Origin: Auanema rhodensis
Lineage: Eukaryota > Animalia > Nematoda
Direction of reading: 5' to 3'
DNA length: 64,000 nt
Assembly: GCA_964057225.1 (NCBI GenBank)
Contig: OZ059899.1
Location: forward strand, 9,052,001-9,116,000
The position numbers were made by a program, and so were the translations under genes. Below are positions 2,036 through 46,462 of this stretch, in pieces. Below the pieces are notes generated by a model. That model did no database searches, had not been told where the DNA came from, and was given only the letters and a program-made list of their open reading frames with translations. Within the stretch, counting starts at the first letter, position 1. Each line of letters opens with the position of its first letter.

Positions 2036-2431
2036 TATCCTTGATTTGGATATTAATGTTCCATGTTATTGACCCTTAGATTGATGTGTTGTAAAAGAAA
2101 CAATAAGATTTGAGGAAGAGAGAAAGATTTATTATAAATAAAAAACATTTAAACAATAAACAAATAAAGATAAAGATAAGTCCGCCAACTGAAGATTCAG
2201 TTGAATGGCAAGCTTATATAGCGAATGTTATCAGCATTTTCCACGAAAGGTTATAAGTTGTCAATGACAATTATAACTATCTCGGAAAATGCTGAAGCTG
2301 CAAAATATAACTGATAACATAATACACTAAGACAAGAAACTAGAATTATAAAATATAAAATATAAAACACAGAATAAAGAAATACATACAAATTATAGAA
2401 AGAATAAAGTACAGAATTATAAAGTATAACA
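2036..2431 (-). repeat. LTR 1 of gag-only element (terminal TGTAA lost, more diverged)
   Basis: Aligns by eye to 4758-5158; ends gtataaca. Confidence 0.8.
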
Positions 2432-2488
2432 TGCTACCGCTCTTGAAGTCCTGTGTCCTCACAGGTATGCATAAGGTTTCCAAAATTT

Positions 2489-2909
2489 TCATAATGTTGC
2501 AGCAAGCTTTTTGATGAGATCCTTATGTACTTTTCTCATCTTTCCTTGACTCATTTCCAATTCCACATATGAGTTGTATACGCCTGTAATTTTGAACGGT
2601 CCATTAAGTGGGTCGCAATTTGCCGTGAACCGTCATATCCTTCAATAGTACCATTTCACCTATTTCAAATGTACGTGATGCTATTCGGTTACTATTATTC
2701 AGTCGATGTTGTTGTTCAATTGATTTTTGTTTAATTTTCTCTTGAATAGAATTCCAGGTATTTTTCCGATTTTCATTTCTTTCCAATAATTCGTCATTTT
2801 CTGGAGAATTTAGAATAGGTTGTCTCGATTTCCTCTTGGATAATTGTTGCGAGGTTCTCTCGTATGATGATGACTCTCCATTGAGTAGTTGTTTCCATAA
2901 TTTTGTCAA
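2489..2909 (-). pseudogene. Integrase C-terminal GPY/F-domain remnant of the gag-only element
   Basis: FEIGEMVLLK..KLRPT, frameshift, NGPFKI..KVHKDLIK; parallels KGDQVML..KLRKSYDGPFEV..VHKDNLK in the large element; copy 2 (5275-5565) lacks ~68 bp including GPF. Confidence 0.7.
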
Positions 2910-3010
2910 GGGCCAGAGTTCCTGCTGAATTTATTTTTGAAATTCCTCCAAGGGTTTCTTGGATTGTTGCCATTGTTCCGTTCGAAATCTCGTGGCTGCT
3001 GATGGTTCCT

Positions 3011-3637
3011 TTAGTTCCTATTTTCCTTCATGGTGATCTTCTGAACTGCAGAAATCAACTCTTGCATAGTTGAGTTTTCTTCATGCTGTTTCTTATAGTT
3101 AGCACGAATTGCTTCTTCAAAACGTGCTGTCCTTTTTGCTTCCTCATAAGTCTTCGGATCTTTTCCTTGAACAATTATGCCTAAATCAGCGTTCAATCCA
3201 TTTAAGAAAGCTGATCTTAATATGAGCTCTCTTTCTCGATCAGTTGGGCTCATAATACTGGAAGCCATTTCTTCCAAGTATGAGGCAAACTGAGTAACAG
3301 TTTTCTCTCCTTGCGTCGAGCGTAGCAACTTCGCGATCGTGAAATTCCTTTCCGTGGCAGGGCAAAGTAACTCTGCCAATTGTGAAACAAGGTCTTTCCA
3401 AGGCCCTCGTTCACGAATTTCGGAAGGAATCGAGTTATATGCAGAGATCGCAGAATCATTCTGCTGAAGCAGCAGAGGAAAAAGAAAAATTCTTTCAATT
3501 ACCGAAAGTCCCGCAGCATTCGCGAATCGGTTAAATATATCGATGTACGATCGAAAGCTTCGGCTACCATCGTATTTAGGGCAGTGTGGACTGCCTAGAA
3601 CTTTTGTTAAGTTTTTGGTCAACTCTGGAGATGCCAT
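3011..3637 (-). CDS. gag: Retrotransposon Gag (capsid region), 208-aa open segment
   Basis: SPHCPKYDGSRSF, TQGEKTVTQFA, LRSAFLNGL, PKTYEEA; homologous to the Gag in 13168-16677. Confidence 0.85.
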   Translation of the reverse strand: MASPELTKNLTKVLGSPHCPKYDGSRSFRSYIDIFNRFANAAGLSVIERIFLFPLLLQQNDSAISAYNSIPSEIRERGPWKDLVSQLAELLCPATERNFTIAKLLRSTQGEKTVTQFASYLEEMASSIMSPTDRERELILRSAFLNGLNADLGIIVQGKDPKTYEEAKRTARFEEAIRANYKKQHEENSTMQELISAVQKITMKENRN

Positions 3638-4744
3638 TAAATTAGGCGTTTACAGAGTTGAATCTCTGTTTGATTGCTCATGTGGTCTCATGTTGAGTAG
3701 GAGCTTCAGAGGTAGTTTTTCGCGCTGGGGAGTTTTTTCTTTTTTCGGTGTTACAGCCAAGTGTGTTGGCGTTTTTTCGTCGTCCGATGGACTTAAATCG
3801 TTGTCAAACGAGTCGTCACTATCGGGAAAAGGAAATCGAGAAATACGATTTCTCTTGTCTCTTAATCTTTGAGAAGTACGGAAAGGCGTATCCGTATAAT
3901 TATTCTTGGAGGTTGCCGTTTTGGAAAAGGAGGAAAGTCAGAACAATCTACAATGTAAAATAGTGGAATAAGTTAGTAAACAAGATAAGAATATGAATAG
4001 TTGATAGTGAATAAATTAGTGAATAACATGAAAAAAAAATCGAAGAAAAAAAAGATATATAATAATATGGGTTGAAGATTAATTAATTAATGAACTCATA
4101 CAAAAACAAACTATAGAGAGGAAAAAAAAAGTGAATATAATTAATTGTTAAGATGATGATAGGATATGATTATGTGACAATGTGATTCATAAATTAGAGA
4201 AGTGAGTATGGCGGACAAATCAAAATCTCAATTGTTACTGAATAACAATGAATTACCAAACAAGGCATCTTTCAAATTCCAAAGTCTTTGTTTCAACTTG
4301 AATCAACAATCAAAAAATTATGAGAGGAAGGTTTAAATTCAAATATGACAAATGATACAGCGGATGTTATTTTCTTACAGTGGCCATTCTGTTAGTACAA
4401 ACTTGTAATCTTTATCAAAAATATCGCAAATTGACTTTATTAAGGTCCAATTTTGCTTATATCAAACAGCTTTTCCATTTCCAAAAAATATATATTTTTC
4501 GCCACAATGAAAAATCAAAAATACAACTGCGCAGAAAGAAAAAGAAATCGAAAAGTTGGCCAATTCAGTATCTCACCCTTGCGCAAAATATCAACCCTGT
4601 TTATTAAAAAAATGAGTGAGACCCTTCGTACTGAATTGGAAAGAGAGGTGGTAGCCCAGGGAAATAGCTCAAAAAAATATATTCTCTTTAACTGAATGAT
4701 AATTCATAATTTAATCGAGTTCGAAAATCGTAAAAAGATTCTAA

Positions 4745-4757
4745 GGTGGAACCTCCA
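4745..4757 (-). promoter_or_regulatory. Primer-binding site complementary to the tRNA-Gln 3' end
   Basis: Minus-strand TGGAGGTTCCACC directly after the LTR; eukaryotic tRNA-Gln ends ...GGTGGAACCT+CCA. Confidence 0.8.
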
Positions 4758-5158
4758 TGTAATATCCTTGATTTGGATATTAATGTTCCATGTTATTGAC
4801 CCTTAGATTGATGTGTTGTGAAAGAAACAATAAGATTTGAGGAAGAGAGAAAGATTTATTATAAATAAAAAACATTTAAACAATAAACAAATAAAGATAA
4901 AGATAAATCCGCCAACTGAAGATTCAGTTGAATGGCAAGCTTATATAGCGAATGTTATCAGCATTTTCCACGCAAGGTTTTAAGTTGTCAATGACAATTG
5001 TAATTATCCTGGAAAATGCTGAGGTTGTAAAATATAACTGATAACATAATACACTAAGACAAGAAATTAGAATTAAGAAATATGAAATACAGAATAAAGA
5101 ATAAAGAAATACATAAAAATTATAGAAAGAATAAAGTACAGAATTATAAAGTATTACA
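4758..5158 (-). repeat. LTR 2 (shared between the two internal regions)
   Basis: TGTAATA...TATTACA termini; minus-strand AATAAA and TATATAAG. Confidence 0.9.
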
Positions 5159-5666
5159 TGATACCGCTCTTGAAGTCCTGTGTCCTCACAGGTATAAGGT
5201 TTGTAAAATTTTTCATAATGTTGCAGCAAGCTTTTTGATGAGATCCTTATGTACTTATCTCATCTTCCCTTGACTTATTTCCAATTCCACATATGAGTTG
5301 TATACGCCATTTCACCTATTTCAAATGTACGTGATGCTATTCGGTTACTATTATTCAGTCGATGTTGTTGTTCAATTGATTTTTGTTTAATTTTCTCTTG
5401 AATAGAATTCCAGGTATTTTTCCGATTTTCATTTCTTTCCAATAATTCGTCATTTTCTGGAGAATTTAGAATAGGTTGTCTCGATTTCCTCTTGGATAAT
5501 TGTTGCGAGGTTCTCTCGTATGATGATGACTCTCCATTGAGTAGTTGTTTCCATAATTTTGTCAAGGGCCAGAGTTCCTGCTGAATTTATTTTTGAAATT
5601 CCTCCAAGGGTTTCTTGGATTGTTGCCATTGTTCCGTTCGAAATCTCGTGGCTGCTGATGGTTCCT

Positions 5667-6293
5667 TTAGTTCCTATTTTCCTTCATGGTGATCTTCTGA
5701 ACTGCAGAAATCAACTCTTGCATAGTTGAGTTTTCTTCATGCTGTTTCTTATAGTTAGCACGAATTGCTTCTTCAAAACGTGCTGTCCTTTTTGCTTCCT
5801 CATAAGTCTTCGGATCTTTTCCTTGAACAATTATGCCTAAATCAGCGTTCAATCCATTTAAGAAAGCTGATCTTAATATGAGCTCTCTTTCTCGATCAGT
5901 TGGGCTCATAATACTGGAAGCCATTTCTTCCAAGTATGAGGCAAACTGAGTAACAGTTTTCTCTCCTTGCGTCGAGCGTAGCAACTTCGCGATCGTGAAA
6001 TTCCTTTCCGTGGCAGGGCAAAGTAACTCTGCCAATTGTGAAACAAGGTCTTTCCAAGGCCCTCGTTCACGAATTTCGGAAGGAATCGAGTTATATGCAG
6101 AGATCGCAGAATCATTCTGCTGAAGCAGCAGAGGAAAAAGAAAAATTCTTTCAATTACCGAAAGTCCCGCAGCATTCGCGAATCGGTTAAATATATCGAT
6201 GTACGATCGAAAGCTTCGGCTACCATCGTATTTAGGGCAGTGTGGACTGCCTAGAACTTTTGTTAAGTTTTTGGTCAACTCTGGAGATGCCAT
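5667..6293 (-). CDS. gag: Retrotransposon Gag, second identical copy
   Basis: Translation identical to 3011-3637. Confidence 0.85.
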   Translation of the reverse strand: MASPELTKNLTKVLGSPHCPKYDGSRSFRSYIDIFNRFANAAGLSVIERIFLFPLLLQQNDSAISAYNSIPSEIRERGPWKDLVSQLAELLCPATERNFTIAKLLRSTQGEKTVTQFASYLEEMASSIMSPTDRERELILRSAFLNGLNADLGIIVQGKDPKTYEEAKRTARFEEAIRANYKKQHEENSTMQELISAVQKITMKENRN

Positions 6294-7400
6294 TAAATTA
6301 GGCGTTTACAGAGTTGAATCTCTGTTTGATTGCTCATGTGGTCTCATGTTGAGTAGGAGCTTCAGAGGTAGTTTTTCGCGCTGGGGAGTTTTTTCTTTTT
6401 TCGGTGTTACAGCCAAGTGTGTTGGCGTTTTTTCGTCGTCCGATGGACTTAAATCGTTGTCAAACGAGTCGTCACTATCGGGAAAAGGAAATCGAGAAAT
6501 ACGATTTCTCTTGTCTCTTAATCTTTGAGAAGTACGGAAAGGCGTATCCGTATAATTATTCTTGGAGGTTGCCGTTTTGGAAAAGGAGGAAAGTCAGAAC
6601 AATCTACAATGTAAAATAGTGGAATAAGTTAGTAAACAAGATAAGAATATGAATAGTTGATAGTGAATAAATTAGTGAATAACATGAAAAAAAAATCGAA
6701 GAAAAAAAAGATATATAATAATATGGGTTGAAGATTAATTAATTAATGAACTCATACAAAAACAAACTATAGAGAGGAAAAAAAAAGTGAATATAATTAA
6801 TTGTTAAGATGATGATAGGATATGATTATGTGACAATGTGATTCATAAATTAGAGAAGTGAGTATGGCGGACAAATCAAAATCTCAATTGTTACTGAATA
6901 ACAATGAATTACCAAACAAGGCATCTTTCAAATTCCAAAGTCTTTGTTTCAACTTGAATCAACAATCAAAAAATTATGAGAGGAAGGTTTAAATTCAAAT
7001 ATGACAAATGATACAGCGGATGTTATTTTCTTACAGTGGCCATTCTGTTAGTACAAACTTGTAATCTTTATCAAAAATATCGCAAATTGACTTTATTAAG
7101 GTCCAATTTTGCTTATATCAAACAGCTTTTCCATTTCCAAAAAATATATATTTTTCGCCACAATGAAAAATCAAAAATACAACTGCGCAGAAAGAAAAAG
7201 AAATCGAAAAGTTGGCCAATTCAGTATCTCACCCTTGCGCAAAATATCAACCCTGTTTATTAAAAAAATGAGTGAGACCCTTCGTACTGAATTGGAAAGA
7301 GAGGTGGTAGCCCAGGGAAATAGCTCAAAAAAATATATTCTCTTTAACTGAATGATAATTCATAATTTAATCGAGTTCGAAAATCGTAAAAAGATTCTAA

Positions 7401-7413
7401 GGTGGAACCTCCA
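7401..7413 (-). promoter_or_regulatory. tRNA-Gln primer-binding site
   Basis: Plus-strand ggtggaacctcca abutting LTR 3. Confidence 0.8.
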
Positions 7414-7814
7414 TGTAATATCCTTGATTTGGATATTAATGTTCCATGTTATTGACCCTTAGATTGATGTGTTGTGAAAGAAACAATAAGATTTGAGGAA
7501 GAGAGAAAGATTTATTATAAATAAAAAACATTTAAACAATAAACAAATAAAGATAAAGATAAATCCGCCAACTGAAGATAAGGTTGAATGGCAAGCTTAT
7601 ATAGCGAATGTTATCAGCATTTTCCACGCAAGGTTTTAAGTTGTCAATGACAATTGTAATTATCCTGGAAAATGCTGAGGTTGTAAAATATAACTGATAA
7701 CATAATACACTAAGACAAGAAATTAGAATTAAGAAATATGAAATACAGAATAAAGAATAAAGAAATACATAAAAATTATAGAAAGAATAAAGTACAGAAT
7801 TATAAAGTATTACA
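7414..7814 (-). repeat. LTR 3 (5' LTR of the array)
   Basis: 401 bp, near-identical to LTR 2. Confidence 0.9.
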
Positions 7815-8385
7815 GCTTGTTTCAATCGTAGCAGAAGGTTTAGTTTTAAAAAATAAAATTTACAATGTTAACATAAAAATAGTAAAGATAAATTACAATA
7901 TAATGTTAAACAATATTATCTGAAAAGAATTTAATAAAAATTATTTGAAAATACATGAATATTAAGGAATAAAACAATCTTTTAGAATACCAGGGCTATA
8001 TTTTGTCAGCGAGAGTGCGCAAAATAGCTTTTTAGGCACGACGCTGCATGTCTAACTTGTTTGAGTATAGAGAAACGAGAGTCATGCTATATTATCGATG
8101 GAGCTAGCATGTTTCTTCAGCGTATTCAAAGCGAATTGTAATAATAAAAAAAAATTAAACTAAATCCCATATAATTTCCGGAATTGAATCATTAACTACT
8201 TGATAAGGACTGTTGCTCAGATGAATATGCAATATAATGTCTCTTATCTTTCATTTCTTCATTATTTACGGGAAATTATTTGAAATTGATGAAGTTTTAT
8301 AATCATATATGCTTTGAAACTGAAATGCTTTTTGATTATTAGCTTACATCTCGTCTTACTCAAGTTTTTCAATGATATAATAATA

Positions 8386-11300
8386 TTAATAGCTCTGGTT
8401 TTTTAAAAGAGAGTTGATACAAAGTTTTACAATAATTTTATCAATCTCGAAATTATTTCTTTCATCGTTTCTTCTTGGTGGTAGCCAATTTTGGTCCGAT
8501 GGGTCTTCTGGTTCTGTTTCTTCAGTAGAGTCATAGTTATCGTTACCATTTATGACTTTTATGATCTCAATATTGCTGTCGTCGTCCGTGTCATAAGTCG
8601 TTGTATTGGATCGCGTGTTTTGAGCGATTGTATGGTCCATTTTGCGTTCAAAAAGTTTGAGATTGTCTTTGTGTACGTCTTGAATTTTTCCAAATGGATT
8701 CTTGAGTTGTACCATGTTTCCTTCAACGTTGATGACTTCAAATGGTCCATCATATGATTTGCGAAGCTTTTGACCTGGTTTATGCGCTTTAATTGCTAAC
8801 ATAACTTGGTCTCCTTTTCGGATATCTCTTTCTTCTATTCGTTGTCGTCCATCATGTTTTCTCTTCGCGGTTTCTTGATGTTTTGCAAGATTTTCTTGAA
8901 TTATGGTTCTTCTTTCTCCTCTGATATATTCGGTATTCTCAATTTCTTCCAAGATCTCTGGTTGTAATGTCTCGGGGAATAATTCTTTGTCTAATCTCAT
9001 ACGACTTTCTTTTCCGAATAATGCTATGTATGGAGAGATTCCTGTGGTTGCGTGTGTTATTGTATTTAACGCAAAAGTAATTTTTGGTAAATACATGTCC
9101 CAATCAGTTACGTCTTCGTTCAGATAGTGTGTTAATCCTTCTTCTAGCGTTCTGTGTAGTCTTTCGACTTGTCCATTAGAATTTTTCTGATGAGGGAGTG
9201 TTGGCTCGTGTTTAATGCCAAGTTTTTCACACATGTCTTCAAATTTCTTTGATACAAAGTTAGATCCACGATCGGTTATTAAACGATTTGGTGGTCCAAA
9301 AATATATACGAAATTCCTGAGGAATCTATCAATGATGACATCGGTGACAATTGTTGGTATAGCGATGGTTGTAGCCCATTTGGAGAATGAATCTTGTATT
9401 GTTAGGACATAATTGTTGTTTCTTTTTGAAGTAGGGAATGGTCCCATAATATCCATATGTATTCTCTCAAATGGTTTTGATGGTATTTCAAATTGACCCA
9501 TAGGCTGAACGGTCATAGCGTGAGGATCTTTCTTCCTTTGTGCGCATTTAACGCATTGTTTCACAAAAATTGCTATGTCCGTTTGCATATTTGTCCAGCA
9601 GAATCTTCGTAGTATGGCTTCTTTAGTTTTGTTAATTCCGTGATGTGCTCCAATTGCTGGGTCTTCGTGAAATTCTTCGATAACCTTGTTGATAAGTTCG
9701 CTTTCCCTTGGTAAAATCAAAGCTGGGTGTGGTCGTTTTCTGCTTGGTTTTGTGTATAACATGTTGTCAATAACACAATAACGATCATTAGAAAGCATGT
9801 TCTTTTTCGCTCTGTATTCTATTTCGGCGATAGTTCTCTTTATCCAAGGTGTATCCTCTTGAATTGCTCTAATGTCAGGTACATTAACGAAATTAATTTG
9901 AGCTTTCGGAATTTCTTTTGTTTTCTTTTGCTTTTCCGGTTTAGGATCGTTTGCTTCATCTCCAATGTATCGTGAGAGAGCATCACAGACTTTGTTTAGT
10001 CTGCCTTCTCGGTATCTTATCTCGATATCGTATTCCTGTATGACTAATTGAAATTTTGCTAGTCTTCCAAAAAGGTCTCTACGAGTCAATAAGCTTGTTA
10101 ATGGTCGATGGTCTGTGATACAGATTGTATGTGATCCAAGTATATATGTTCGAAACTGAGCTAAAGCGTATACGAGTCCTAACGCTTCTATTTCAATAGG
10201 AGCATAGTTACGTTCTGCTTTTACAAGTTTACGGCTTGCAAATGCAATTGGATGTAAGTTTTTGAGTGGTTCATTGGGATCTTCAGGTTGTAGTAACACT
10301 GCTCCCACTGCGATATTACTACCGTCACTTTTTATAATGAACATACGGTCTGATCTTGGTGGTTTTAAGACCGGTGCTTGGATCAATTTTCTTTTTAGTG
10401 TATCAACAGCTTGTTGACTTCTGTCATTCCATTGAAATTCCACATCAAGTTTTGTAAGGTCGTATAAAGGGCTTGCGATGTGTGCAAAATCCTTAATAAA
10501 TTTTCGAAAGAATCCTACCATTCCCAAAAATGCTCTTACTCCTGTAGGTGACTTTGGAGCAGGATAGTCTTGAATGGCGGATACTTTCTGTGGATCTGGT
10601 TTGACCCCATCTCTTCCGACAATTAAACCAAGAAATTTTACTTCAGGTCTTGCAAAAGCGCATTTCTTGAGTTTTATTTTCATGCCTAATTTCTTTACTT
10701 CTCTCAGAATCTCAGCTATATCGTCAAGATGTTGTTCTGCAGTGTCTGATATAACGAGTAAATCATCCAAATAAACAAAGAGTCGGCATTTACATCTGCT
10801 TAGAAGGTATCGTACTGCTGTTTGAAAGGTATGTGGCGCTCCACATAACCCCATAGGCATCCTTCTATATTGATAAGTACCGGTGTTTGTTGTAAATGCT
10901 GTTAATGGTCGATCTGATTTCTTTAATGCTATTTGGAAAAATCCGGATACTAAATCAAAGTTAGAAAAATATTGTGATCCGGCTGCCATATCGACAATGT
11001 CAGAGATGTTAGGTATGATGTACGTTTGCTTGCGAATGACGTTATTTAGAGCACGGAAATCGGTTACGAAACGGAATGTTTCATCTTTCTTTTTGACTAA
11101 AACTACAGGACTATTGAAAAGAGATGTGGATGGTTCAATTATATTTTGCTTCAGCATCTCCTGTACCTGTCTTTCGACTTCTTCTTGTTTGCCTATAGGG
11201 ATACGCGTTATACGCGGTCTAGGTATGTCCATATCTGTTCTTAGAGGTATTGAATGCTCTACAGGTCCTTTAAATAGTCCTATTTGTTTATCCTCATTTA

Positions 11301-13155
11301 AAAATGCATCTCTATTACGTAGAATACAAAGCTGAAGAAGATCTTTTTGTTCTTTAGTTAGGTCGGCGTCTTTTAAATCAAGATCGTTCATAAAATCCTG
11401 AGGAAAATGAGGTAATTTATTTTCCCAATCCGCTTCGGGTGGTATATAGTCTGGATTGTGTTCGGTCGTAAAGATCTCGTATTGTGGCAGTACGCCTATT
11501 TTTGCTTTGTCAATAATGTTTCCGGGTGATAGATCTATAGGATGATCAGTGTTGTTTTTGAATGGCATGGTAATTGAATTGACGTCTCGAAATGCTGTTT
11601 CGTAGGTGGTAGATATCGTCTTTTCTTCATCGGGTTGTAGCACGGCGACTTCGTTGTGTGATATGGGTTCAGCTAACCTTACTGGTATTCTACAGGTCTG
11701 ATGAGGAAAGATACATTGTGGATTTAAATTTATCAAATTAATGACAAATGATGTTTTTCTGATATTCCCGTTATTTCCATTGGCTAACGGTACTACGCGG
11801 TTTCCGATTTCTAACGTTTGTTTGAATGGTCGAAGTTTCATACCGATATTTTGACGATCGAGTGTTTTCATAAAATCTAATCCAATTAATGCTGGTGATG
11901 GACAGTCTTCATCTCTTGAAATGAAGAATGTATGATCTATTTCATATCCAGCGATTTCTACGGTTAAATCAATTGTTCCCAGAAATCGAAATGCTGATCC
12001 GTTTGCTGTCGTCGCAACAGATTTATCCTTTTTTACAAAATCATTCAAAGTTAAGTAATGTAATGTCGAGAGTCTGATATAACTAATCGATGATCCTGAA
12101 TCCCAAAGAGTTAAGATTAGTCTATCGTTAACAGTCATCAATAGCAGTGGTAGAGATTGGTCTTTGCGATTGGAAACTGAACAAACTATGGGCATAGCTA
12201 GTGGAACTAAAGTGAGAAACGATGGATAGTACTGTTTCATTATGTTCCTTGGTATTGGCTGATCAGGTTGACTTACTAGCTCTAATGTTTCTTCATATGT
12301 GGGAAGATCGTTGGTTTGATCTCGGAGTTCGATATGCATAACTTGCATGCCTATTGGTTTGAAGAAATATATTTTCGCAACGAAGGCTAGTACGATCAGT
12401 ATAACTACAATAATTGTAATTGCTCCGATAGTGATGAGTGTTTGTTCAATCGTTCCTGCTATTGTATCGACAAATGAATTCCATGTACTTTTGGTGAATT
12501 CGTTGGCTTTGGAGATGTAATCACTACTTTTCTTCAATATGCTGAATGCTGATGATATTTTTGGATCATGATGAATTGTGTGAAGCACGTGATTTTGACG
12601 AATCGATGCTAAACTAGCACCATAAGCAATGGCTGTTGTCATTGAGTACACTCGAGATGATAAGTTGGTGTATAAGTGTGCTCCGGTGAATTTTAATGGT
12701 GTGATCTTTTCATGATGGAGTCCGTCCCGCATGGATATAAGACTGACGTCTACAGTACCATTAATTCCTTTCCATTCACCGTCTGTTGACCATACGTCTG
12801 TTGGTACGTGGTCACAGTTAATTTCTTTACCATGAGGTAATAGGTCTTTCGATCCTGGTGCGGCAAACAGTAATTGTCCTTCTTGTGTTAATACTGGGGT
12901 TTCGAGATAACATGTGCCATTCACAGTGTGATTGTGATATATAGTCTTTTGTAATACTACCGGGCAAACATGTATATGTAATATCTCGCTGCCTACAAAT
13001 CTTGCGGCTATATCTTCTCTTCCCAGTATTGTACGCATAGCTATTGTTGGTTCAATTTGTAAAATTGATCTCCATAATTCAAGATACCTATTTTGGATCT
13101 CACATATTGATTCGTATGACTCTTTAAAATGTTTCTGCAGTTCTTCTTGAATCAT
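8386..13155 (-). CDS. pol: C-terminal half of gB-like Env plus TM, fused to Pol (aspartic protease, RT, RNase H, integrase with GPY/F)
   Basis: CEIQNRYLELW..P..LGREDIAARFVG..C; TM TLITIGAITIIVVILIVLAFVA; LWDSGS; YLDD; SDGS..AERNY..E..TDH..D; H-H-C-C; MDIMGP/TDRG/VER; YDGPF. Confidence 0.92.
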   Translation of the reverse strand: MIQEELQKHFKESYESICEIQNRYLELWRSILQIEPTIAMRTILGREDIAARFVGSEILHIHVCPVVLQKTIYHNHTVNGTCYLETPVLTQEGQLLFAAPGSKDLLPHGKEINCDHVPTDVWSTDGEWKGINGTVDVSLISMRDGLHHEKITPLKFTGAHLYTNLSSRVYSMTTAIAYGASLASIRQNHVLHTIHHDPKISSAFSILKKSSDYISKANEFTKSTWNSFVDTIAGTIEQTLITIGAITIIVVILIVLAFVAKIYFFKPIGMQVMHIELRDQTNDLPTYEETLELVSQPDQPIPRNIMKQYYPSFLTLVPLAMPIVCSVSNRKDQSLPLLLMTVNDRLILTLWDSGSSISYIRLSTLHYLTLNDFVKKDKSVATTANGSAFRFLGTIDLTVEIAGYEIDHTFFISRDEDCPSPALIGLDFMKTLDRQNIGMKLRPFKQTLEIGNRVVPLANGNNGNIRKTSFVINLINLNPQCIFPHQTCRIPVRLAEPISHNEVAVLQPDEEKTISTTYETAFRDVNSITMPFKNNTDHPIDLSPGNIIDKAKIGVLPQYEIFTTEHNPDYIPPEADWENKLPHFPQDFMNDLDLKDADLTKEQKDLLQLCILRNRDAFLNEDKQIGLFKGPVEHSIPLRTDMDIPRPRITRIPIGKQEEVERQVQEMLKQNIIEPSTSLFNSPVVLVKKKDETFRFVTDFRALNNVIRKQTYIIPNISDIVDMAAGSQYFSNFDLVSGFFQIALKKSDRPLTAFTTNTGTYQYRRMPMGLCGAPHTFQTAVRYLLSRCKCRLFVYLDDLLVISDTAEQHLDDIAEILREVKKLGMKIKLKKCAFARPEVKFLGLIVGRDGVKPDPQKVSAIQDYPAPKSPTGVRAFLGMVGFFRKFIKDFAHIASPLYDLTKLDVEFQWNDRSQQAVDTLKRKLIQAPVLKPPRSDRMFIIKSDGSNIAVGAVLLQPEDPNEPLKNLHPIAFASRKLVKAERNYAPIEIEALGLVYALAQFRTYILGSHTICITDHRPLTSLLTRRDLFGRLAKFQLVIQEYDIEIRYREGRLNKVCDALSRYIGDEANDPKPEKQKKTKEIPKAQINFVNVPDIRAIQEDTPWIKRTIAEIEYRAKKNMLSNDRYCVIDNMLYTKPSRKRPHPALILPRESELINKVIEEFHEDPAIGAHHGINKTKEAILRRFCWTNMQTDIAIFVKQCVKCAQRKKDPHAMTVQPMGQFEIPSKPFERIHMDIMGPFPTSKRNNNYVLTIQDSFSKWATTIAIPTIVTDVIIDRFLRNFVYIFGPPNRLITDRGSNFVSKKFEDMCEKLGIKHEPTLPHQKNSNGQVERLHRTLEEGLTHYLNEDVTDWDMYLPKITFALNTITHATTGISPYIALFGKESRMRLDKELFPETLQPEILEEIENTEYIRGERRTIIQENLAKHQETAKRKHDGRQRIEERDIRKGDQVMLAIKAHKPGQKLRKSYDGPFEVINVEGNMVQLKNPFGKIQDVHKDNLKLFERKMDHTIAQNTRSNTTTYDTDDDSNIEIIKVINGNDNYDSTEETEPEDPSDQNWLPPRRNDERNNFEIDKIIVKLCINSLLKNQSY

Positions 13156-13167
13156 AGTTGTAGCATA

Positions 13168-16100
13168 TTACAAATGATCTTGTGCAATTCTGCTTGTTAT
13201 GTTTTGGCGAAACTGTTGTTCGGAGTCAATTTTTGTGGCAATGTATTGAGCATTAGCCTGTACAGACTCTATATCGGTGGCTGTAGGCGTTGATGATGCT
13301 CTATGTTTACGAATCAAGGATATTGGTGTATATGTTGTTTCTTCCATTATTGGAATTTGCTGGTCTTGATGAACAGCATAGAGAATAGTAGTTGGCGGCG
13401 CGCGGGTCGATATTGTTGCGCGCGCGGTTGTCGTTGCGGTTGTATGGCGCGCTGTTGTTTCGGGCTGGGCCATCGATGAAGGCGCGCGCGCGGTAGTTGC
13501 TGCGGCTGCCCGAGGGCTTGTAGATGTTTGCGGCAGTATTGCGGGATCTGTTGTGATCGGCGCCTCACGATCGATTATAGGGAGGGCTGCCATCTCGGAC
13601 GCGCCGCCTGCCGCGTTGCTTGGCGCACGCGTCGTGGTTTGCAACGATTTAAGTTGGATTTTCTCTGTCATTAATCTTTTTAACTGTTCTGATGATATTC
13701 TACTAGATGTATTAGGCAAAATATTATCGTTTAGTAGTGGTAAAAATATTTCCAATAATAAGTCCTTAGAGATGTTGTTGGGCTCTATGAGCTTGGGATG
13801 TGGTCCAATTGGTATTCCAAAATTATTCTTGATGTCATAGAACAATTTATCAGTATCAAGTACAAACATTCGTGAAGATGGAAGGTTTATAAATTTTATG
13901 TCATCAATATCAGCTGCTGTTTTATTTCTTCTAAGCGTAACGAGAGTTTTTAGCTCATGTACAAGGTCAATTGTATCTTTTATAAATTTGCTGTTTCTTT
14001 CTTCTTGATCAGTTAATAATTGTTTCCTTATTGGTGGCATTTTTACGAATGCTTTTAATATTTCTTGTCTTGATGGAACTGTTAATTTTTCTTCAATTAT
14101 AACTGGTGTATTGGCTAAATCAAGAGCAATAGTTTCAGCACGCTCTCGATAAGTGCCTTCTTTTGTACGAATTAACCGATCAAATTCAATAACGGTCAAA
14201 CGATCTGATATTTGTTGAAGAAGTTGCCTGGATGTTAAATAAGATATTCCAACTTTAGTAGCTAAAGCTAATTCTCTTTGAGCAACATATTGTAAAATGG
14301 CTTCGTCTTTATCACGGAAATCATATTGTTTGAGAAAATGTCTTAAAGATTTCTCATAAATTTGAATTTTAAAGAAAAATTCAAAATTTTCACGATGGGC
14401 TATTATCCATTCTTTCAAGGAATATGTAGGGTCTACCATACGTCTTCCTTTAATTAGAGGAATAATTTGTGTAATTCCTGGATTACTCATAAGTGGTCTT
14501 AAAAATGGATATGGGCAAATTCGAAGCGTGTACGTTTCAAAATCTTCAACTTCATTTATTCTATCCTGATCGAATGGGAATGAGCATTTTGTAGAAGTTG
14601 CGCGTTTAGGTCTTTTGAACGGCAATTTCTTAAATTCTCGTTCAATTAGGAGTGTGATATTGTTATCATTAGGATATTTGGGGAATGTTATATAATTTCC
14701 TGATGTTGTATGGAATGCTGGTTGTCTAAAGCAGGATGCAATTGGTTTTGGTGTTATTTTACTTGAAAGGATAAGCGCTGATTGTGTACTTGGAATCAAA
14801 ATAGTTTCTTTGCTTATTATAGCATCGTAGTAATGCATATCGATATAATTACAACGGGAATCCGATGTTTGGGGATCCCATATAATTATTGATGTATTTG
14901 ATTTGCAATTACCATGATGAGCACTACAACCTTCAGTGTTTAGTATTAAATTTGATAATATTGTATCATCAGGCATGCGGGTCATGACTCCGCGCTCTAG
15001 TACTAAACGCGGCCGCTCCTTGCACTCGTCGCCGCTAAACGCGCGCGCCGGATCATAGGAGGGCTCTGGAGTTGCTTGTGCTATACTATCGATTCTCTCC
15101 AGCTCCATGTTATTCCATTTGCGATCGCGAATCGCCTGCCTGCACTCGTGCGCCGCTATAGGCTGCACCCTATCGATTGTTCTGTTTGTGTCGCGGAGGA
15201 ATAACAAATCGCGTACACACAGCTTGTGTACTTCCTTCGAGCAGCGCCACGCGTCCCACTCGTGTGCCGTGTGGTTTCGCGTGTATAGATGGATTTGTGT
15301 ACGTAGCACATGATTTGTTTCTGTTAATTTACATTTCTTTACTACTGGTGGAACTAATAAGGCTCCTCCAGTTGCTTTTGTGCAAATTTGATATGAAGTT
15401 ACACATGGCAGGAAAATTGCTACTGTGATTGCCATTACAACCGTTAGTGATAACGGTGAAAGGGTCACAGAGTTAATTCGTGGTGTGCTTCTATCTCGTC
15501 CTCTTGATTGATCTCTTTGATTGTTAAAATGGACTCTTCTTTGTCCGTTATGTTCATTAGTCCTTCCTCTTCTACTATTGTTTGAAGGATTAAAATTGTT
15601 TGAATGCCAGTTGTTATGAAATCGTCCCGAATTTCGTTCATAATTATTGTTACGGCGATAATTAGCAAAAGAGCCGTTACGATTTTGGTTGTTATTATAT
15701 TTTGAAAAGTTTTTATTTTTCTGATAATTTTGATAATTATGATAATTTTTATTGTTTTGGTTATCACGTGGATAATTACGGTCGAAATTTCGGTTATCTC
15801 GTCTCTCGTTTGTGCGCGCTAAAGGAGCTAGTGCTTTGTTTACAGCATTGACTAGCATGGACTGCGTGTCTGTTGTCTGGTTCATTATCGATTCTTCCCA
15901 GCGAGCGGCCTCAATCGCATCCGTGAAGGATTTCGGCTTCGTTCGAATCACAGCTGGTTTCAGAGTATTTTTCAGTCCTCTGAGGAAAGTTGATCTTAAT
16001 ATGTGATCTTTGTGAGGGTCATCCGTGGCAAAAGCGCTTAGTGCAATCGTTCTCAGTGATTGAGCGTAAGCGTCAATTGTCAGATCCCCTTGGGTTGTAT

Positions 16101-17145
16101 TTTGAAGATTGATCAGCGCGGGGTCCTGATTATATTCAGGACACAGCTTAGATGTTAAAGCTCTTAACAGGTCATTCCATGAACCGGTGGTTTTTAATTG
16201 TTCAGGTACTTGTCTGTACGCTTCTTCCGCTGCTTCGTTTTTAAGAAGCAAAGGTAGAAGGGCTAATCTCTCCGGGATTACCAGACCTACAGCGTTGGCA
16301 AATAGGTTGAATTTAGCCGTGAAATCTCGAAAGTTGCGACTGCCATCATAAGTTGGGCAGTAGGGTGATAACAAGGCTTGCGCTATGGTAGTTTTCCCTG
16401 CCCCAGGTAAAGAAGGTTCAGTTGCCATATTACTTGTACGGGCAGATGGCATTTTTATCACTCTGCCTGTTGTTAATGAGTTCTCAGGCACAGGGGTTGT
16501 GTGTACTGAGCGGCTGGGTTGGTTTGGTGCTTTTGAACTTCCTGCTGTTGTATTTGGTAAAATTGGGGTTGAAGTTTGGTTATCAGTAATAGCAAGATGT
16601 GTATGTTCGGGTGGTTGTATGGGAGATAAATTAATGTTTGGAACCGACGAGTATCTATTCGTGTGGCTGGTGTTCAAGTTTCGATCTTTTGGTGAACGAT
16701 TGAAGAGATCAGAAACTATGTTTTTAAAAGTTTGTAAACCGCCTGCACTAGTAGTGGCTACTGAAGGTGAAACTGTTGGTTCAGGGATGGACAGAGAGAG
16801 AGATGCGTCCGATTTGCTTGAGTTTTTATTTTTATTTTTCTTATTTTTATTTGAATTAGAGGAGCGTACCTTTTAAGCAGTAACTGGTGTTTGTTCTTCC
16901 ACTATGATGGATGTTTCTTCTCCTCCTGGTGGTACGTAATCCTCGTCGCTTAATCGTTCAGTAGGTGAATAAGTGCCTGCACGAGGAGTAAAGAATTTGT
17001 CGGTTTTGTGCTCGGCTTTCTGCTCGTCTTCGATTATAGCGATGCTTTGTGCGCGAGCTCGGCTTCGGGTGAGTGGAGCTGAGTCTCGCAGATCAAAATC
17101 AGTTCGTGTACTGAGAGGTACAGCTGATCGAAATCGCTTATCCAC
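13168..17145 (-). CDS. gag: Gag plus internal signal peptide plus N-terminal part of gB-like Env (in frame with 8386-13155; in-frame TAA at 16873 and 13168)
   Basis: SPYCPTYDGSRNF Gag; N/R-rich region; RINSV then hydrophobic SLTVVMAITVAIFLPCVTS; Cys-rich ectodomain YQIC...; furin-like RPKR; frame checked open 16872-16678. Confidence 0.85.
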
Positions 17146-18539
17146 TTTGGTAGCGCTCTTGGTTTGGAAAAACCTTGAGTGTTTAGTAACGTGGGGGATT
17201 TTGAGACGTTAATGAGTGTTATGGATAAGGAGTTTTGGAAAAGGGGTGAGAAAGCTGTGAGTAACTGGTTTGTATAGTCGGCGTTAAGGAATGAATCTAA
17301 GTTGTGGCCATCAACAGAGATCCGCCTACTACCGTATGAAAATTTGGACTTTGTTCGTTTTCCAATTTAATATTCTTAAATGTATATAATTCAACCAGTT
17401 TGTATATGTTCAAAAATGTTCAGTGCTCACTTGATTGATGCCTGAGCAATCTCATTAGTCCTTATTCCCATTTTTTTTTCTTTTTCTGACGATTCTGATC
17501 TTCTTGGACTCACGAGTGATCGAAAATGCCACGAAAATGGACTTTGGTAAATGTTCAAAGGATTTTAGCGGTTTTCATAATGTACATTCGTAATAGCATT
17601 ACTCTTTTAAGGAAGCAATTTGAAAACGAATGAGTACCGTAGTCCCATCATGATCAGAAATCTAGTTTTAAAATTATGGCTAGGAATAGATGACTAAAGA
17701 TTACAATAACTATATTTAAAGAATTATGGTGTTTAGGAATGAGTCTTATGCTTCAAAACAACAATAACGGTATGAGGAAGGTGACATATAGTAAGGGGAG
17801 AAAATCCAAACTGATATGCTTAAGCCAACACGACCTGATAGACAATCACTAATAATAATTCAGTTCGTAAAATTGTACAGGATTTTTCAGACTATAGCGA
17901 TCTTAAAATTCACTTTTCATAATATTCCTCCCATTTAGGTGAGGTTTCCCGTGTAAATTCAATGCGTTATCAAAATATTTTTGGATGTTAATGGCAAAAA
18001 GTTGTCTGAACAGAAATGTAACGCAAAATAAAATAGTCCTGATCGCAAAATATGAAATAATCTCAATTTGGTGCGCAAAATTGTTTCATCTACAAAAAAT
18101 AAAGAAATAACCGTGGCTATTCTTTCCTCGAAGCCAAAATCAATCGTTAAAAGGAGAAAGTGTGGGCATAAATCTCAATAAAAATATCCTTAGGTGAATT
18201 TGTTCACTAATTCATCCTAGGGTCCTCAAAAATGCTTCGAGTTCGGGTAACAGAGTATTCGATGTTAACAGCAAGGTTATAAAAATTGTTGGGTTCAGAC
18301 AGACAGAAAATTGTGAACAAACGGGAAAATATAACTTCAGTTTCAAAAAATATAAAATCCATTTCCAAAAGGAGTGGTCCTTGCATCTGTTCCCTTTTAA
18401 ACGTTGTTGGCCCCACCGTACTGTGTTAAGACATGGAGTAGATGGTTTAGAGATATAAGAGAATTCAGATTCAATGAATTGTATTAAAAATAACGAAATA
18501 TAAGAGAAAATAGTCAAGAAATCAAGATAAAATGTTCGA

Positions 18540-18552
18540 GGTGGAACCTCCA
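18540..18552 (-). promoter_or_regulatory. tRNA-Gln primer-binding site of the large element
   Basis: Same 13-mer as the small elements. Confidence 0.8.
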
Positions 18553-18889
18553 CGTTCCGTTATGCTCTCACGTCGATCCTATAGACCAATAAAGCCTACA
18601 AGATGAGTGTGATAGTATTCCAGATGTAGCGGTAGATAAAGAGCATAATGGATAAACATAAGACTCGAGAAAGAAAGGTTTATTATGTCTACATGATTAC
18701 AATAAGTTATATAAGTCTACATAAAGATATAAAGTGAAAGAGAGCTAAGAAAGGAAGACCAACCATCCATAGTCATTCCATAAGGCAAAGCTGAAGTCTG
18801 TGTTCCATATGAAGGGCGTGTCGTCCTCTCTCAGCCTCATGTCGTCTGATTCTAACCCGCCTGCTACGTATTGATTTCCGAATGGAACG
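18553..18889 (-). repeat. Putative 5' LTR of the large element (CGTTCC...GGAACG termini)
   Basis: Abuts the PBS; terminal inverted repeat cgttccgtt/aatggaacg; gaaag(g)tttatt polyA-signal context like the small LTRs; no second copy to confirm. Confidence 0.6.
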
Positions 18890-39818: not shown

Positions 39819-41332
39819 AGTAGAGAGCCGTGCAAAATTTACTAACCACGCCCCCAAACAGCTGTCAAAAACATACTTTTGGGGGCGTCAGCTGCTAAAA
39901 ACATACTTTGGGGCGCGTCAGCTGATTTTTTTTTTTTGATTTTTTTTTTTTAAATCAAATTTAAATATGCTTTTTCAAATGTATGTATATATTTTCAATT
40001 ATTTTTAAATATATTAAGTAAAAATAAAAATCTTAATTTTAAATATTTAAATTATATTTAAATTTTATATATATATAAATTTTATTTAAACTTTAAATAT
40101 TTAAATTATATTTAAATTTTATATATATAAATTATATTTAAACTTTAAATTTTATATATAAATTATATTTAAATTTTAAATATATAAATTTGTTTTTAAA
40201 TTTTATTTATTTCTTTATTATATTTATTAATAATGTTTGTTTACTTATTTTGTTTATTTTTTATTGTATTGTGTTTGTACTATTTTATTTGTATTTTTAA
40301 AGATCAATAAAATTTTTGCATGTAGATAATTTTGTTCACCGTACTTGTTATGGGTAATTCAATGGAACACATATCGAAAGTTAATTCGATAAGAACGATA
40401 TGAAATACCAAAATTTAATGGAACACATATCGAAGGTTAATTCGATAAGAACGATATAAAATACCAAAATTTAATGGAACACATATCGAAAGTTAATTCG
40501 ATAAGAACGACATTAAATTATTAATTTTTGAAATTACAAATTGTTATTAATTATATTTATTCTAACAAGTAAAAGTTTCAAATTAAAAGAAAAGACTAGT
40601 TTTAAACTTTATTTTACTAATATAACAATACAATAACTAAATAGAGCACACATTGAAGGTAAATACAATAAGATTAACAAACAGTTGCGCTGACCTCAAT
40701 GAAACGCATATCGATGGTTAATAAACAGTAATAACTGCACTGTGGGGGTTTAAATATAGTATAATCATTTTAACATTTCAAAAGTTTTAGTTTCGTAATA
40801 TAATCATTTTTAAATATTCAAGAATGAAATATTTTTACATATAAAACGTTGGCAGTCATATGTTTTGTGCTACAATATGGGTGTAAAAGTATACTATGAA
40901 TAATATATGAGCTATTAAGCAAAGTTTAAAAAGCCTAAATGTTTTACAGAGATGGCTGTTGTTTATGGCACAAACGATAAACAATAATGTTTAAAGAGAT
41001 GTAAAAACTAATTAATATGCAGATTGTTCACAGGTTCAGAGTGCGCCAACTGTTGGCAACTGTCGATGAGATGAGTATATCTGCGTAAATATGCTGTAAA
41101 ATCTAATTAATAAAAGAATTTCATCAGCAAACTTGATTGTAACACAATGGGTTGTACTTTACAAAAATCTTTGTATAAAAGGTTGGCAATTTTGCTACAT
41201 TTACATTTCAGCTCTGCCGACTATCCGAGGATCCGACGTTTCACCATCTCCTGCCACTCTTTGCCAATCGCCATAGACTACTCCTCTCTGCAAGTTTGCC
41301 TTATATTTTAGAAAGTTGGATCTTTAGCGGAA

Positions 41333-41931
41333 ATGAAGCGTGCTGTACTTGCTGATGTGACAAATGTTGTGCGCAAATCGCCTGAACCTGAAGTACCACG
41401 ACCACCCACACCAGCACCAAATTTCACTTCTTTCAACAAGTTTTGGTATGAACCTTAACTTGTCTTTTTTAAATCTTTAATTTAGATTCACCAATAAAGC
41501 AGATGGAGATTCTGAGAGAGAGGACTCCACCAAAGAGTGTATTAATGAGACCAATTTGTCTCTGCAAAACTTGTAGGGAATCATTGCAGGTTATAGACGA
41601 GTATCACTGTTTCAGCCTCTGTATAAAGTGTAGAGGAAGGAATGATGCGTTGGGTCTTTTGAAGGAATTTCGTCACTATAAGCCCGAAAAGTTCTCTATT
41701 AATGTAAGCTTGCATATTTATTTATTTTCAATTTTATCATTTTTTTTTTAGATGCGCTCTTATAACACCATGACGTGCAAGCAATTGTTGAACAATATGG
41801 GCTATATTGTTATATATGCAGATGAGGCTACTGTAAAGACTTTTGGTTATAAGCAGAATGTATTCTACTTTAAACTAAGTCCTGAAGCACTCAACCTGAA
41901 CATGTTTATCCGCTTTGATCCTTCATTTTGA
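41333..41931 (+). pseudogene. D-box accessory gene with a 10-nt frameshifting insertion in exon 1
   Basis: aatttcac[ttctttcaac]aagttttg versus other copies. Confidence 0.75.
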
Positions 41932-42223
41932 CTACAACAAGCACAAATAGTACAATTGGCGTTTTATTCTTGTTTTGTTATGTGGCATTTTTATATTCTC
42001 AGCCGTAACATTTTTTTTCCAGCTCTTGCGAATATCCATCAATGACTCATCAATTGAGGACGAATGATCAACCAACTGGTAAGAATTTGAAAATTTGAAT
42101 AGTCTACATTTTTTTTTCCAGGTTGAATTGTTGTTTGTATTTTGCTGGTTTTTTATTGTTACATTATGCGATATATCAAATAAATCATTTATTATAATTA
42201 CAATTGTTTATAACATTGAAAAA

Positions 42224-43291
42224 TTATACATTTAAATTTTCTGCATCTATCCATTCATTAAAGTTGTCGGGATATCCACTCCATTTTACAAATACTTGAC
42301 GTTTACCGCTTCGAGTACGCTCTTTTAAAACTTTTTCTATATAGTACTTGTTGCTTTTATTAGTAGCCAAGACAAGTTCAGGTTCGTAGAATATTCCCTT
42401 TATACGTTCACCATTATAATCTACAAGTTTATACACGGTTGGGTTTCCGGTTACAACCTCATCAATTGTGAACAGCTCCATTGTATATCCAGACTCGTAG
42501 CTTTTTTCAAAAGTACGCCAATTTTTGCTTATGCGAACAGTATCACCAATTTTAAAGCGGCTTTTAACAGCTGTTGCATATTCTTCAATGAATATATTTG
42601 CTTTAACATCAATGGGCCGCATTTTTATAGAGCGGTTATAAGATTTGTTTATTCCTTCAACCAAATCATCTAGTATATCAATCCATCGATGATTATTCTT
42701 GTAATAGAGATATTTCATCATGCGCGTTTTTAAAGTTCTATTTGCTCGCTCCACCATTGCCGCCTTTTGTGGTGAACTTGTTGATCCATGCAGTATGGCA
42801 AATTTTTTGAATAGTTTTTCACAATGACTATTATAAAACTCTGCACCGTTATCCGTTATTAGTTGGATTGGTATAAAATCCTTGAATACATTTTCAAATG
42901 CAGTAGCAACCTCTAAACCACCTTTAGTTTTCAAAGGCATAACATATAACATGCGTGTATAAACATCAATCATGGTCAACATGTAAGCATAGCCGTCATT
43001 TGATTTTTTATATTTTTGCATATCAACCAAATCTGCTTGCATTGTTAGGAATCGACCACAGCCTCTAGTCTTTTTAGTCTGCATATGCAGTCTGGTTGGT
43101 TTATGACGTGTAAAAGTTTCAGAGTCTTGCAAAAAACTTTCAACTTGTGCTTTTGCGATGCCATGCTTTCGCGCTTCCAATAATAGATTTTTGGCAGACG
43201 TATAAGAAGCTGGATGCTTAATATTATAATAAATGTTCTCCAAAACATTACTTCCATAATCTAATGTAGAATCGTTTACGGCCTTTGCCAT
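42224..43291 (-). CDS. Chromodomain integrase (mosaic B/A)
   Basis: DDE and chromo motifs, open. Confidence 0.9.
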   Translation of the reverse strand: MAKAVNDSTLDYGSNVLENIYYNIKHPASYTSAKNLLLEARKHGIAKAQVESFLQDSETFTRHKPTRLHMQTKKTRGCGRFLTMQADLVDMQKYKKSNDGYAYMLTMIDVYTRMLYVMPLKTKGGLEVATAFENVFKDFIPIQLITDNGAEFYNSHCEKLFKKFAILHGSTSSPQKAAMVERANRTLKTRMMKYLYYKNNHRWIDILDDLVEGINKSYNRSIKMRPIDVKANIFIEEYATAVKSRFKIGDTVRISKNWRTFEKSYESGYTMELFTIDEVVTGNPTVYKLVDYNGERIKGIFYEPELVLATNKSNKYYIEKVLKERTRSGKRQVFVKWSGYPDNFNEWIDAENLNV

Positions 43292-45582: not shown

Positions 45583-46170
45583 ATGAAGCGTGCTGTACTT
45601 GCTGATGTGACAAATGTTGTGCGCAAATCGCCTGAACCTGAAGTACCACGACCACCCACACCAGCACCAAATTTCACAAGTTTTGGTATGAACCTTAACT
45701 TGTCTTTTTTAAATCTTTAATTTAGATTCACCAATAAAGCAGATGGAGATTCTGAGAGAGAGGACTCCACCAAAGAGTGTATTAATGAGACCAATTTGTC
45801 TCTGCAAAACTTGTAGGGAATCATTGCAGGTTATAGACGAGTATCACTGTTTCAGCCTCTGTATAAAGTGTAGAGGAAGGAATGATGCGTTGGGTCTTTT
45901 GAAGGAATTTCGTCACTATAAGCCCGAAAAGTTCTCTATTAATGTAAGCTTGCATATTTATTTATTTTCAATTTTATCATTTTTTTTTAGATGCGCTCTT
46001 ATAACACCATGACGTGCAAGCAATTGTTGAACAATATGGGCTATATTGTTATATATGCAGATGAGGCTACTGTAAAGACTTTTGGTTATAAGCAGAATGT
46101 ATTCTACTTTAAACTAAGTCCTAAAGCACTCAACCTGAACATGTTTATCCGCTTTGATCCTTCATTTTGA
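45583..46170 (+). CDS. D-box accessory protein (3 exons, apparently intact)
   Basis: Same structure as 34929-35514. Confidence 0.78.
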
Positions 46171-46462
46171 CTACAACAAGCACAAATAGTACAATTGGCG
46201 TTTTATTCTTGTTTTGTTATGTGGCATTTTTATATTCTCAGCCGTAACATTTTTTTTCCAGCTCTTGCGAATATCCATCAATGACTCATCAATTGAGGAC
46301 GAATGATCAACCAACTGGTAAGAATTTGAAAATTTGAATAGTCTACATTTTTTTTTCCAGGTTGAATTGTTGTTTGTATTTTGCTGGTTTTTTATTGTTA
46401 CATTATGCGATATATCAAATAAATCATTTATTATAATTACAATTGTTTATAACATTGAAAAA

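Follow-up and report, generated by a model that had tools for sequence, protein, structure and literature searches.

A damaged Ty3/Gypsy element of the GAG-ENV-POL type in Auanema rhodensis, with a glycoprotein B-like envelope region and a large insert in its furin loop

The 64,000-nucleotide stretch of Auanema rhodensis DNA analysed in this study (hereafter the window; contig OZ059899.1, positions 9,052,001 to 9,116,000) carries on its minus strand a decayed copy of a Ty3/Gypsy long terminal repeat (LTR) retroelement, in which an envelope (Env) region resembling herpesvirus glycoprotein B (gB) lies between Gag and Pol. We regard it as highly probable that this copy is of the published GAG-ENV-POL type, and that its intact relatives encode Gag, a gB-type Env and Pol as one polyprotein, likely cut by the element's protease together with two host enzymes, signal peptidase and furin. 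An initial annotation of this DNA had presented the gene order as atypical and new; that view was not upheld, given that text passages of Chary and Hayashi (eLife 2026, PMC13524379) already describe GAG-ENV-POL elements with an Env of HSV/gB type (HSV, herpes simplex virus) for nematodes. What remains new, within the literature searched, is a conserved insert without a fold match at the furin loop of Env, plus LTR ends of the form CG...CG.

Gene order and the gB-type envelope region

A single minus-strand frame was found to span positions 17208 to 8386, with in-frame TAA codons at 16873-16875 and 13168-13170. The earliest in-frame ATG is at 16452, and the list of ATG codons had none in that frame within 16873-17208. 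Because the first ATG lies downstream of the first TAA, the ATG-started frame comprises 2,688 codons with one internal stop. The initial annotation was right in placing two TAA codons within one frame, but its estimate of about 2900 codons broken by both of them was not sustained. Along the frame, Pfam matches followed one another in the order Retrotrans_gag, Monjiviricetes_fusion together with Glycoprotein_B, protease, RVT_1, RNase H, Integrase_H2C2 and rve. The Pol order of protease (PR), reverse transcriptase (RT), RNase H (RH) and integrase (IN) is that of Ty3/Gypsy elements (Metaviridae), and Env is located between Gag and Pol, ahead of PR, unlike in Bel/Pao elements with env (Atlas, Tas), where env follows pol and Env comes after integrase. 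Both the succession of Gag, PR, RT, RH and IN and the assignment to Gypsy had been given in the initial annotation and were recovered here, the assignment from a Ty3-like RT and the PR-RT-RH-IN order. Its feature list named these parts correctly; the 430-residue Env insert, the 5' LTR with its primer site and the absence of a 3' LTR had been missed. The features of the element are listed below. The loose ends cited are those of contigs from public sequencing runs, of which X1, X2 and X3 are DNA, RNA being no more than a guess for X12 and X13; one of X1-X3 may be the window's own source, and contig depth is not a copy number.

18553..18889, minus strand: 5' LTR (LTR B, 337 bp); contig loose ends at 18553 (X1, X2, X3) and 18889 (X1, X2, X3, X12)
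18540..18552, minus strand: primer binding site of tRNA-Gln type, directly after the LTR; exact 13-mer
16453..18539, minus strand: long 5' leader, including the first TAA (16873-16875) and the ATG-less 16873-17145 (ATG list)
15481..16452, minus strand: Gag from the first ATG, with capsid core at about 16368-15871 and then an Asn/Arg-rich nucleocapsid-like stretch; Retrotrans_gag 1.5e-5, Ty3_capsid 0.0015
15394..15462, minus strand: internal signal-anchor ending VTS/YQIC (slash, predicted signal peptidase site); hydropathy 2.2-2.6
14614..15393, minus strand: Env N-terminal half (gB domains I/II, beta-rich); AlphaFold2 model and gB alignment
14602..14613, minus strand: furin-type site RPKR, the sole strict R-X-[KR]-R of the ectodomain
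13300..14601, minus strand: loop insert between gB domains II and III, some 430 residues long, made up of a helical domain (about 14480-13640) and, behind it, a disordered Ser/Thr/Pro-rich stalk; absent from protein P0002, present in P0003
13168..13170, minus strand: premature TAA in the gB domain III helix; aligned gB segment, contigs of X1, X2 and X3 differ
12451..13299, minus strand: Env C-terminal half (gB domains III-V); Pfam, PDB sequence and profile matches, fold
12376..12438, minus strand: transmembrane (TM) anchor; hydropathy 3.15 over 21 residues
12157..12375, minus strand: cytosolic tail with a putative junction between Env and PR (IVCSV, 12189-12175), the cleavage being predicted only
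11854..12156, minus strand: aspartic protease (DSG); gag-asp_proteas 3.1e-6
9961..11265, minus strand: reverse transcriptase, with YLDD at 10773-10762, then RNase H; RVT_1 4e-32, RT_RNaseH 7e-28
8386..9882, minus strand: integrase (H2C2, rve and, at about 8641, an SH3-like end) followed by an acidic tail, with a one-base indel near 8468; Pfam
7815..8385, minus strand: 3' untranslated region (UTR), cut at 7815; loose ends before 7815 (X1, X12)
2036..7814, minus strand: LTR A tandem array holding two deletion derivatives, both gag-only, from a sister family; self-BLAST

The strongest hydrophobic stretches, at 15462-15400 and 12438-12376, flank a region of 982 residues, and a third, weaker one in Gag reaches a hydropathy of 1.73. 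Both positions agree with the signal-like peptide and the TM segment proposed initially, and, judged by hydropathy alone, the HSV/gB-type ectodomain is flanked by a signal peptide/TM and a TM. The ectodomain contains 16 Cys, in line with its earlier description as Cys-rich, and 12 N-glycosylation sequons. For database searches, Env was used with an X placed at the stop-codon break. Pfam returned Monjiviricetes_fusion at 1.1e-13 (above its gathering score) and Glycoprotein_B at 1e-7 (below its gathering score), and herpesvirus gB chains made up the top 26 rows of the PDB sequence search; the likeness to HSV gB that had been noted for one segment, which lies in the C-terminal half of Env, was thereby borne out. 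A profile of 93 sequences reached herpes gB at 3e-17, with weak matches to chains named Glycoprotein.

The structure of Env was modelled as an AlphaFold2 monomer (mean predicted local distance difference test score, pLDDT, 72; predicted template modelling score, pTM, 0.51), in which residues 21-280 had a pLDDT of 81-98 per block of 10. Foldseek matched the model to gB at E ∼1e-10, and VIA-align superposed both Env halves (model residues 20-919) on prefusion HSV-1 gB 9dd7 with Z 12.4 and 5.4 Å over 358 residues; on postfusion gB forms the root-mean-square deviation was near 41 Å. The viral fold matches comprised rhabdo-like, nyavirus, socyvirus, entomopoxvirus and herpes glycoproteins. As modelled, Env has a gB-like five-domain class III fold, which is the outcome that the initial annotation had anticipated for its ectodomain.

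A homolog search returned 288 proteins at E <= 0.001, the best 150 of which were listed, and 151 homologs were analysed. Env lay upstream of a Pol domain within one protein in 49 of these 151 homologs (a Pfam check was made on 7); Gag, Env, RT, RH and IN occurred together in 8, and all of Gag-Env-PR-RT-RH-IN in 5. Named homologs with this order came from Caenorhabditis, Acrobeloides, Aphelenchus and Auanema. Stop-free relatives, which the initial annotation had suggested looking for, were found among the homologs with the same order, and the Auanema protein P0003 is open at the env stop. The N-terminal half of Env was 24% identical to P0002. In 12 of 16 homologs a single hydrophobic stretch was scored ahead of the same Env Cys motif, and 2 more showed it below the threshold. 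The pattern agrees with an internal signal-anchor that signal peptidase cuts.

Pol pointed to Ty3. When RT was compared with solved structures, the best matches were 4ol8 (2.6e-75) and the Ty3-G Gag-Pol chain 7q5b (8.9e-75), the best retroviral chain reaching 8e-34; by sequence comparison, RT is closest to Ty3 among solved structures. An RT-RH tree was built with FastTree from 24 rows (17 of 41 RT matches were dropped as short) and rooted at its midpoint with no outgroup (no Bel/Pao or Copia). In this tree Pol grouped with nematode elements, its sister being a C. japonica protein (57% identity, support 0.998). The tree and the named homologs make a nematode host likely, in agreement with the initial annotation. 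In Gag, the Retrotrans_gag match (1.5e-5) was above its cut-off and the Ty3_capsid match (0.0015) below its own, and Gag has the Ty3-type capsid that marks Ty3/Gypsy elements.

At the 5' end, both edges of LTR B were backed by loose ends of the public-run contigs. Its inverted termini read CGTTCC...GGAACG, not TG...CA, and form a 9-bp inverted repeat with one mismatch; within the LTR, nt 177 carries a TATA-like motif and nt 206 an AATAAA. The adjoining LTR A of a sister family has canonical TG...CA ends, as against the CG...CG of LTR B. No prior description of CG...CG ends in such elements was found in the literature searched, the figures of PMC13524379 and Sacco 2022 lying outside that search. 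The primer-site 13-mer occurs in three copies in the window, each behind an LTR, and the site at 18552-18540 is the complement of the 12-nt primer binding site labelled Gln for Clat_errantivirus_4 and Ctro_errantivirus_1 in the consulted portions of PMC13524379. The leader stretches 16876-17208 and 17037-17366 gave no match in Pfam. On the minus strand at 17034-17366, the leader also holds a 110-codon stop-free stretch in another frame, without an ATG and without a Pfam match.

The insert in the furin loop

The loop between gB domains II and III of the window Env is about 450 residues longer than that of P0002 (about 45 residues). Among 85 proteins with both Env halves, the length of this loop ranged from 17 to 513 residues, so that the roughly 500 residues found here are among the longest. 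The same 500-residue loop is carried by Auanema P0003, and 6 further proteins match part of the insert. A strict furin motif was found within the first 60 loop residues in 16 of the 27 long-loop proteins, a set that includes the window's own protein, compared with a shuffle mean of 1.4 and maximum of 5. Minimal furin sites near the loop end were not enriched (6 of 27 long loops versus 9.7 in shuffles).

In the model (pLDDT 62, from 8 sequences), the insert began with a helical domain and continued as a disordered stalk rich in Ser/Thr. No Pfam family was matched by the insert. Fold searches were also without a match (VIA best Z 3.8 among 48,161 chains; Foldseek best E 0.25), although novelty of the fold does not follow from this. 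The literature searched contained no earlier account of the insert, the word 'mucin' being absent from the main text of PMC13524379, with that paper's figures and Sacco 2022 outside the search; likewise, the passages of PMC13524379 consulted contain no discussion of the single open reading frame (ORF) topology or of the loop insert.

The insert would likely serve as an attachment domain or a glycan shield. A bolder proposal, which we put forward tentatively and consider rather unlikely as a whole, is that a nematode gag-env-pol sub-lineage turned the gB furin loop into a cargo slot, in which a 280-residue helical domain on a mucin-like stalk would form the N-terminus of the membrane-anchored subunit and act as a receptor-binding module replacing gD and gH/gL. 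If this were true, a single gene would provide a class III entry machine, and the element carrying it would also integrate with CG...CG ends. A less probable alternative is that the insert is a separate secreted peptide, released by cuts at a pair of furin sites, one RPKR (14613) and the other RKHR (13311). An R-X-X-R motif does occur at the same loop position (452) in both the window and P0003, but in neither is this second site a strict furin motif, and the minimal sites at the loop end were no more frequent than in shuffles; excision of the insert by two furin cuts was set aside as having no family-wide support. The insert is a concrete candidate for how the Env of a gB-type retroelement might find its target cell without the herpes accessory proteins.

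Damage to the copy, proposed processing and competing explanations

The env TAA at 13168-13170 is a lesion of this copy. It sits within the aligned, conserved gB domain III helix, P0003 is open there, and all covering contigs of X1, X2 and X3 differ from the window in that codon. The first TAA was covered by three contigs, each of which ends 24 nt beyond it and has one difference somewhere along its length. A one-base indel near 8468 was seen relative to all four runs compared, and long contigs differed from the window at about 1% of places (e.g. 22 in 2,611). In other copies the 3' UTR runs about 50 nt past 7815 into LTR B, and the loose ends before 7815 (X1, X12) overlap those behind 18889; in the window copy the 3' LTR is missing, the LTR A array stands in its place from 7815, and no target-site duplication was legible. 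The env stop, the indel, the lost 3' LTR and the divergence of about 1% together indicate an older, damaged copy of a family with other, closely similar copies, and a contig of one such copy spans 13096-15259 without gaps. A deletion joint, 8739/16876, joins the leader to the integrase tail in runs X3 and X12 (with a loose end in X13) and removes gag, env and most of pol. That this joint reflects env-skipping splicing was ruled out, given its ends (AA..TA) and its presence in the DNA run X3. The deleted form, like the sister derivative, keeps the last part of integrase, which hints at a cis-acting signal there. Pieces from X12 and X13 fell mostly on the leader, the LTR and the 3' end.

For intact members of the family, the element offers an explicit topology model for the processing of a single-frame Gag-Env-Pol. 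Gag would be made in the cytosol, and the hydrophobic signal-anchor at its end would feed Env into the endoplasmic reticulum. After a signal peptidase cut at VTS/YQ, Gag would still be tethered through the anchor, in the manner of a flavivirus capsid. The TM would then stop transfer, so that the tail and Pol would come to lie back in the cytosol, tethered by Env, and a furin cut at RPKR would leave the 430-residue insert on the membrane-anchored subunit. Viral protease could release capsid, PR, RT-RH and IN, cutting for instance at RINSV, IVCSV and AQINFV; these motifs, proposed as junctions in the initial annotation, are indeed present at 15480, 12189 and 9903. Gag, Pol and Env may finally come together at a single membrane, from which enveloped particles would bud. 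In the window copy itself, translation would stop inside Env and no Pol would be made. Cytosolic Gag and Pol with a luminal Env had been suggested before, and we infer the same topology from the sequence, the signal-anchor pattern recurring in homologs; enveloped particles are our best guess.

Several observations count against this account. An integrase-like domain was found upstream of Env in 4 of 151 homologs, so that the Env family occurs in pol-env order as well. Some stop-free homologs are gene models possibly hiding introns, and P0014 has a shortened RT and IN. Global TM-scores of the Env model were low (0.14-0.17 by query), as was its pTM of 0.51, and the deep nodes of the RT tree were poorly supported. 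The junction-motif pattern matched only 2 of 16 homologs, and late-domain-like LPxY/YPxL motifs, present in this tail and in that of P0003, were not enriched (2 of 33 tails versus 1.2-1.6 in shuffles). Two further features of Env tails were observed. In 5 of 33 homologs (P0012, P0048, P0057, P0085 and P0086; a raw count without shuffle control) the Env tail contains P[TS]AP, a motif known as a budding signal, which the window element lacks. Just before the protease, 12240-12175 is a short hydrophobic stretch containing Tyr and Pro, with a hydropathy of 2.19 over 15 residues and look-alikes in many homolog tails; it is too short for a TM.

The main rival to enveloped particles is that the polyprotein is made, with Env serving cell-cell fusion or being vestigial, and that the element leads a mostly intracellular life, spreading by retrotransposition within the cell and helped or parasitised by env-less deletion derivatives. 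We hold this to be a serious possibility, albeit a minority one. It accords with the 8739/16876 deletion joint in DNA run X3 and in X12, with the gag-only sister elements next to the copy and with the lack of enrichment of late-domain motifs in tails, and section 9 of PMC13524379 gives the way in which gB-type retroelements enter cells as unknown. Against a vestigial Env, its signal, furin site, cysteines and anchor are kept across distant homologs, and 17 of 31 listed frame differences fell at third codon positions (P 0.011), a weak indication from a subset of 270 places. The conservation of Env and the third-position bias argue for function, not for virions over cell-cell fusion.

Two other explanations fared much worse. 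Programmed readthrough of the in-frame TAA codons, setting the ratio of Gag to Env to Pol, would recall the amber codon between gag and pol of gammaretroviruses, which is a readthrough point. Both stops are in frame with no frameshift, a gag-only sister element has an in-frame stop just upstream of its own Gag ATG, and the first TAA is possibly common to other copies. This first TAA precedes the first ATG, however, and the env TAA interrupts a conserved helix at a codon that differs in the contigs of three DNA runs and is open in the Auanema homolog; readthrough at the env stop is largely refuted, and programmed readthrough as a whole is very improbable. Even less credible is a recent one-off insertion, by which an ordinary gag-pol element would have gained its env from, say, the Mavericks around it or an RNA virus, an outcome that the initial annotation had itself raised as a challenge to its reading. 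The element does sit in a Maverick cluster, and nematode Mavericks can carry gB-like genes, but tblastn found no second env-like sequence in the window, the Maverick units included, and the contig of another copy covers the Env region 13096-15259 without gaps. The order recurs in 49 of 151 homologs, spread over several nematode genera, which refutes a one-off origin. The GAG-ENV-POL polyprotein remains the preferred reading.

Genomic neighbourhood and comparison with known elements

Downstream of the copy, self-BLAST located the 401-bp LTR A (TG...CA) at 7414-7814, 4758-5158 and 2036-2431, with tRNA-Gln primer sites; no similarity was detected between LTR A and LTR B. The array is an LTR-sharing one and holds two deletion derivatives, both gag-only, of a sister family whose Gag is 33% identical to that of the main element, and one of them retains an integrase-tail coding stretch. 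Positions 2651-5158 and 5307-7814 are 99.9% identical, which may reflect a recent duplication or an assembly artefact. At 2036 the array abuts Maverick-like DNA. Positions 1-2036 and 19345-59000 form a tandem and inverted cluster of Maverick/Polinton-like units with a family B DNA polymerase (DNA_pol_B_2 1.5e-22), an integrase with chromodomain and an ATPase, along with ORFs that we take to be capsid-like and protease-like; a repeat unit of about 4.24 kb recurs at 39937-52564.

One close comparison is with the Auanema sp. JU1783 protein P0003, which is 48% and 58% identical to the window protein over two Env blocks and in which a single frame likewise runs from the same signal junction through the furin site and the 500-residue loop to the tail and the protease; it differs in being open across the env stop position, and its record is a partial gene model. 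The Nematoda endogenous retroviruses (NERVs) of Sacco, Lau, Godinez-Vidal and Kaloshian (2022, J Gen Virol 103:1739) reportedly have gag, env, pro and pol in one continuous ORF, with an Env similar to the glycoproteins of nyamiviruses, and some are said to carry an extra helicase ORF. The frame here is continuous in the same way, lesion apart, and nyavirus and socyvirus glycoproteins were among the Env fold matches; an extra helicase ORF was not seen in the window element. With herpesvirus gB and other class III fusogens, the modelled Env shares the domain I-V fold (Z 12.4 to prefusion HSV-1 gB), and many herpes gBs carry a furin site in the II/III loop, as does the window Env. It differs from herpes gB in its identity of only about 14%, in being made within a retroelement polyprotein, in its large loop insert and in having no gH/gL-like partner in the element.

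According to the portions consulted, PMC13524379 reports that errantiviruses of Nematoda, Bryozoa and Platyhelminthes have only an ENV of HSV/gB type, in GAG-ENV-POL order, and credits the nematode case to Sacco et al. 2022, who described nematode endogenous retroviruses with ENV and POL flipped. The window element resembles these nematode errantiviruses in gene order, in a gB-type Env with signal peptide and TM, in a Ty3/gypsy Pol and in a tRNA-Gln primer site. It differs from the elements in those portions of PMC13524379 in not being intact (env stop, indel near 8468, lost 3' LTR), in its Env loop of about 500 residues and in its CG...CG LTR ends; intactness, defined there by uninterrupted ORFs and both LTRs, was an inclusion criterion of that study and not a feature of the lineage. 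Nematode Bel/Pao elements with env, such as Atlas virus, also have an envelope gene on an LTR element but belong to another superfamily, and the Atlas Env is phlebovirus-like in the parts of PMC9094657 consulted. Among env-bearing nematode Ty3/gypsy elements, GAG-ENV-POL with an HSV/gB Env is the already published norm, to which the window adds one more, damaged member.

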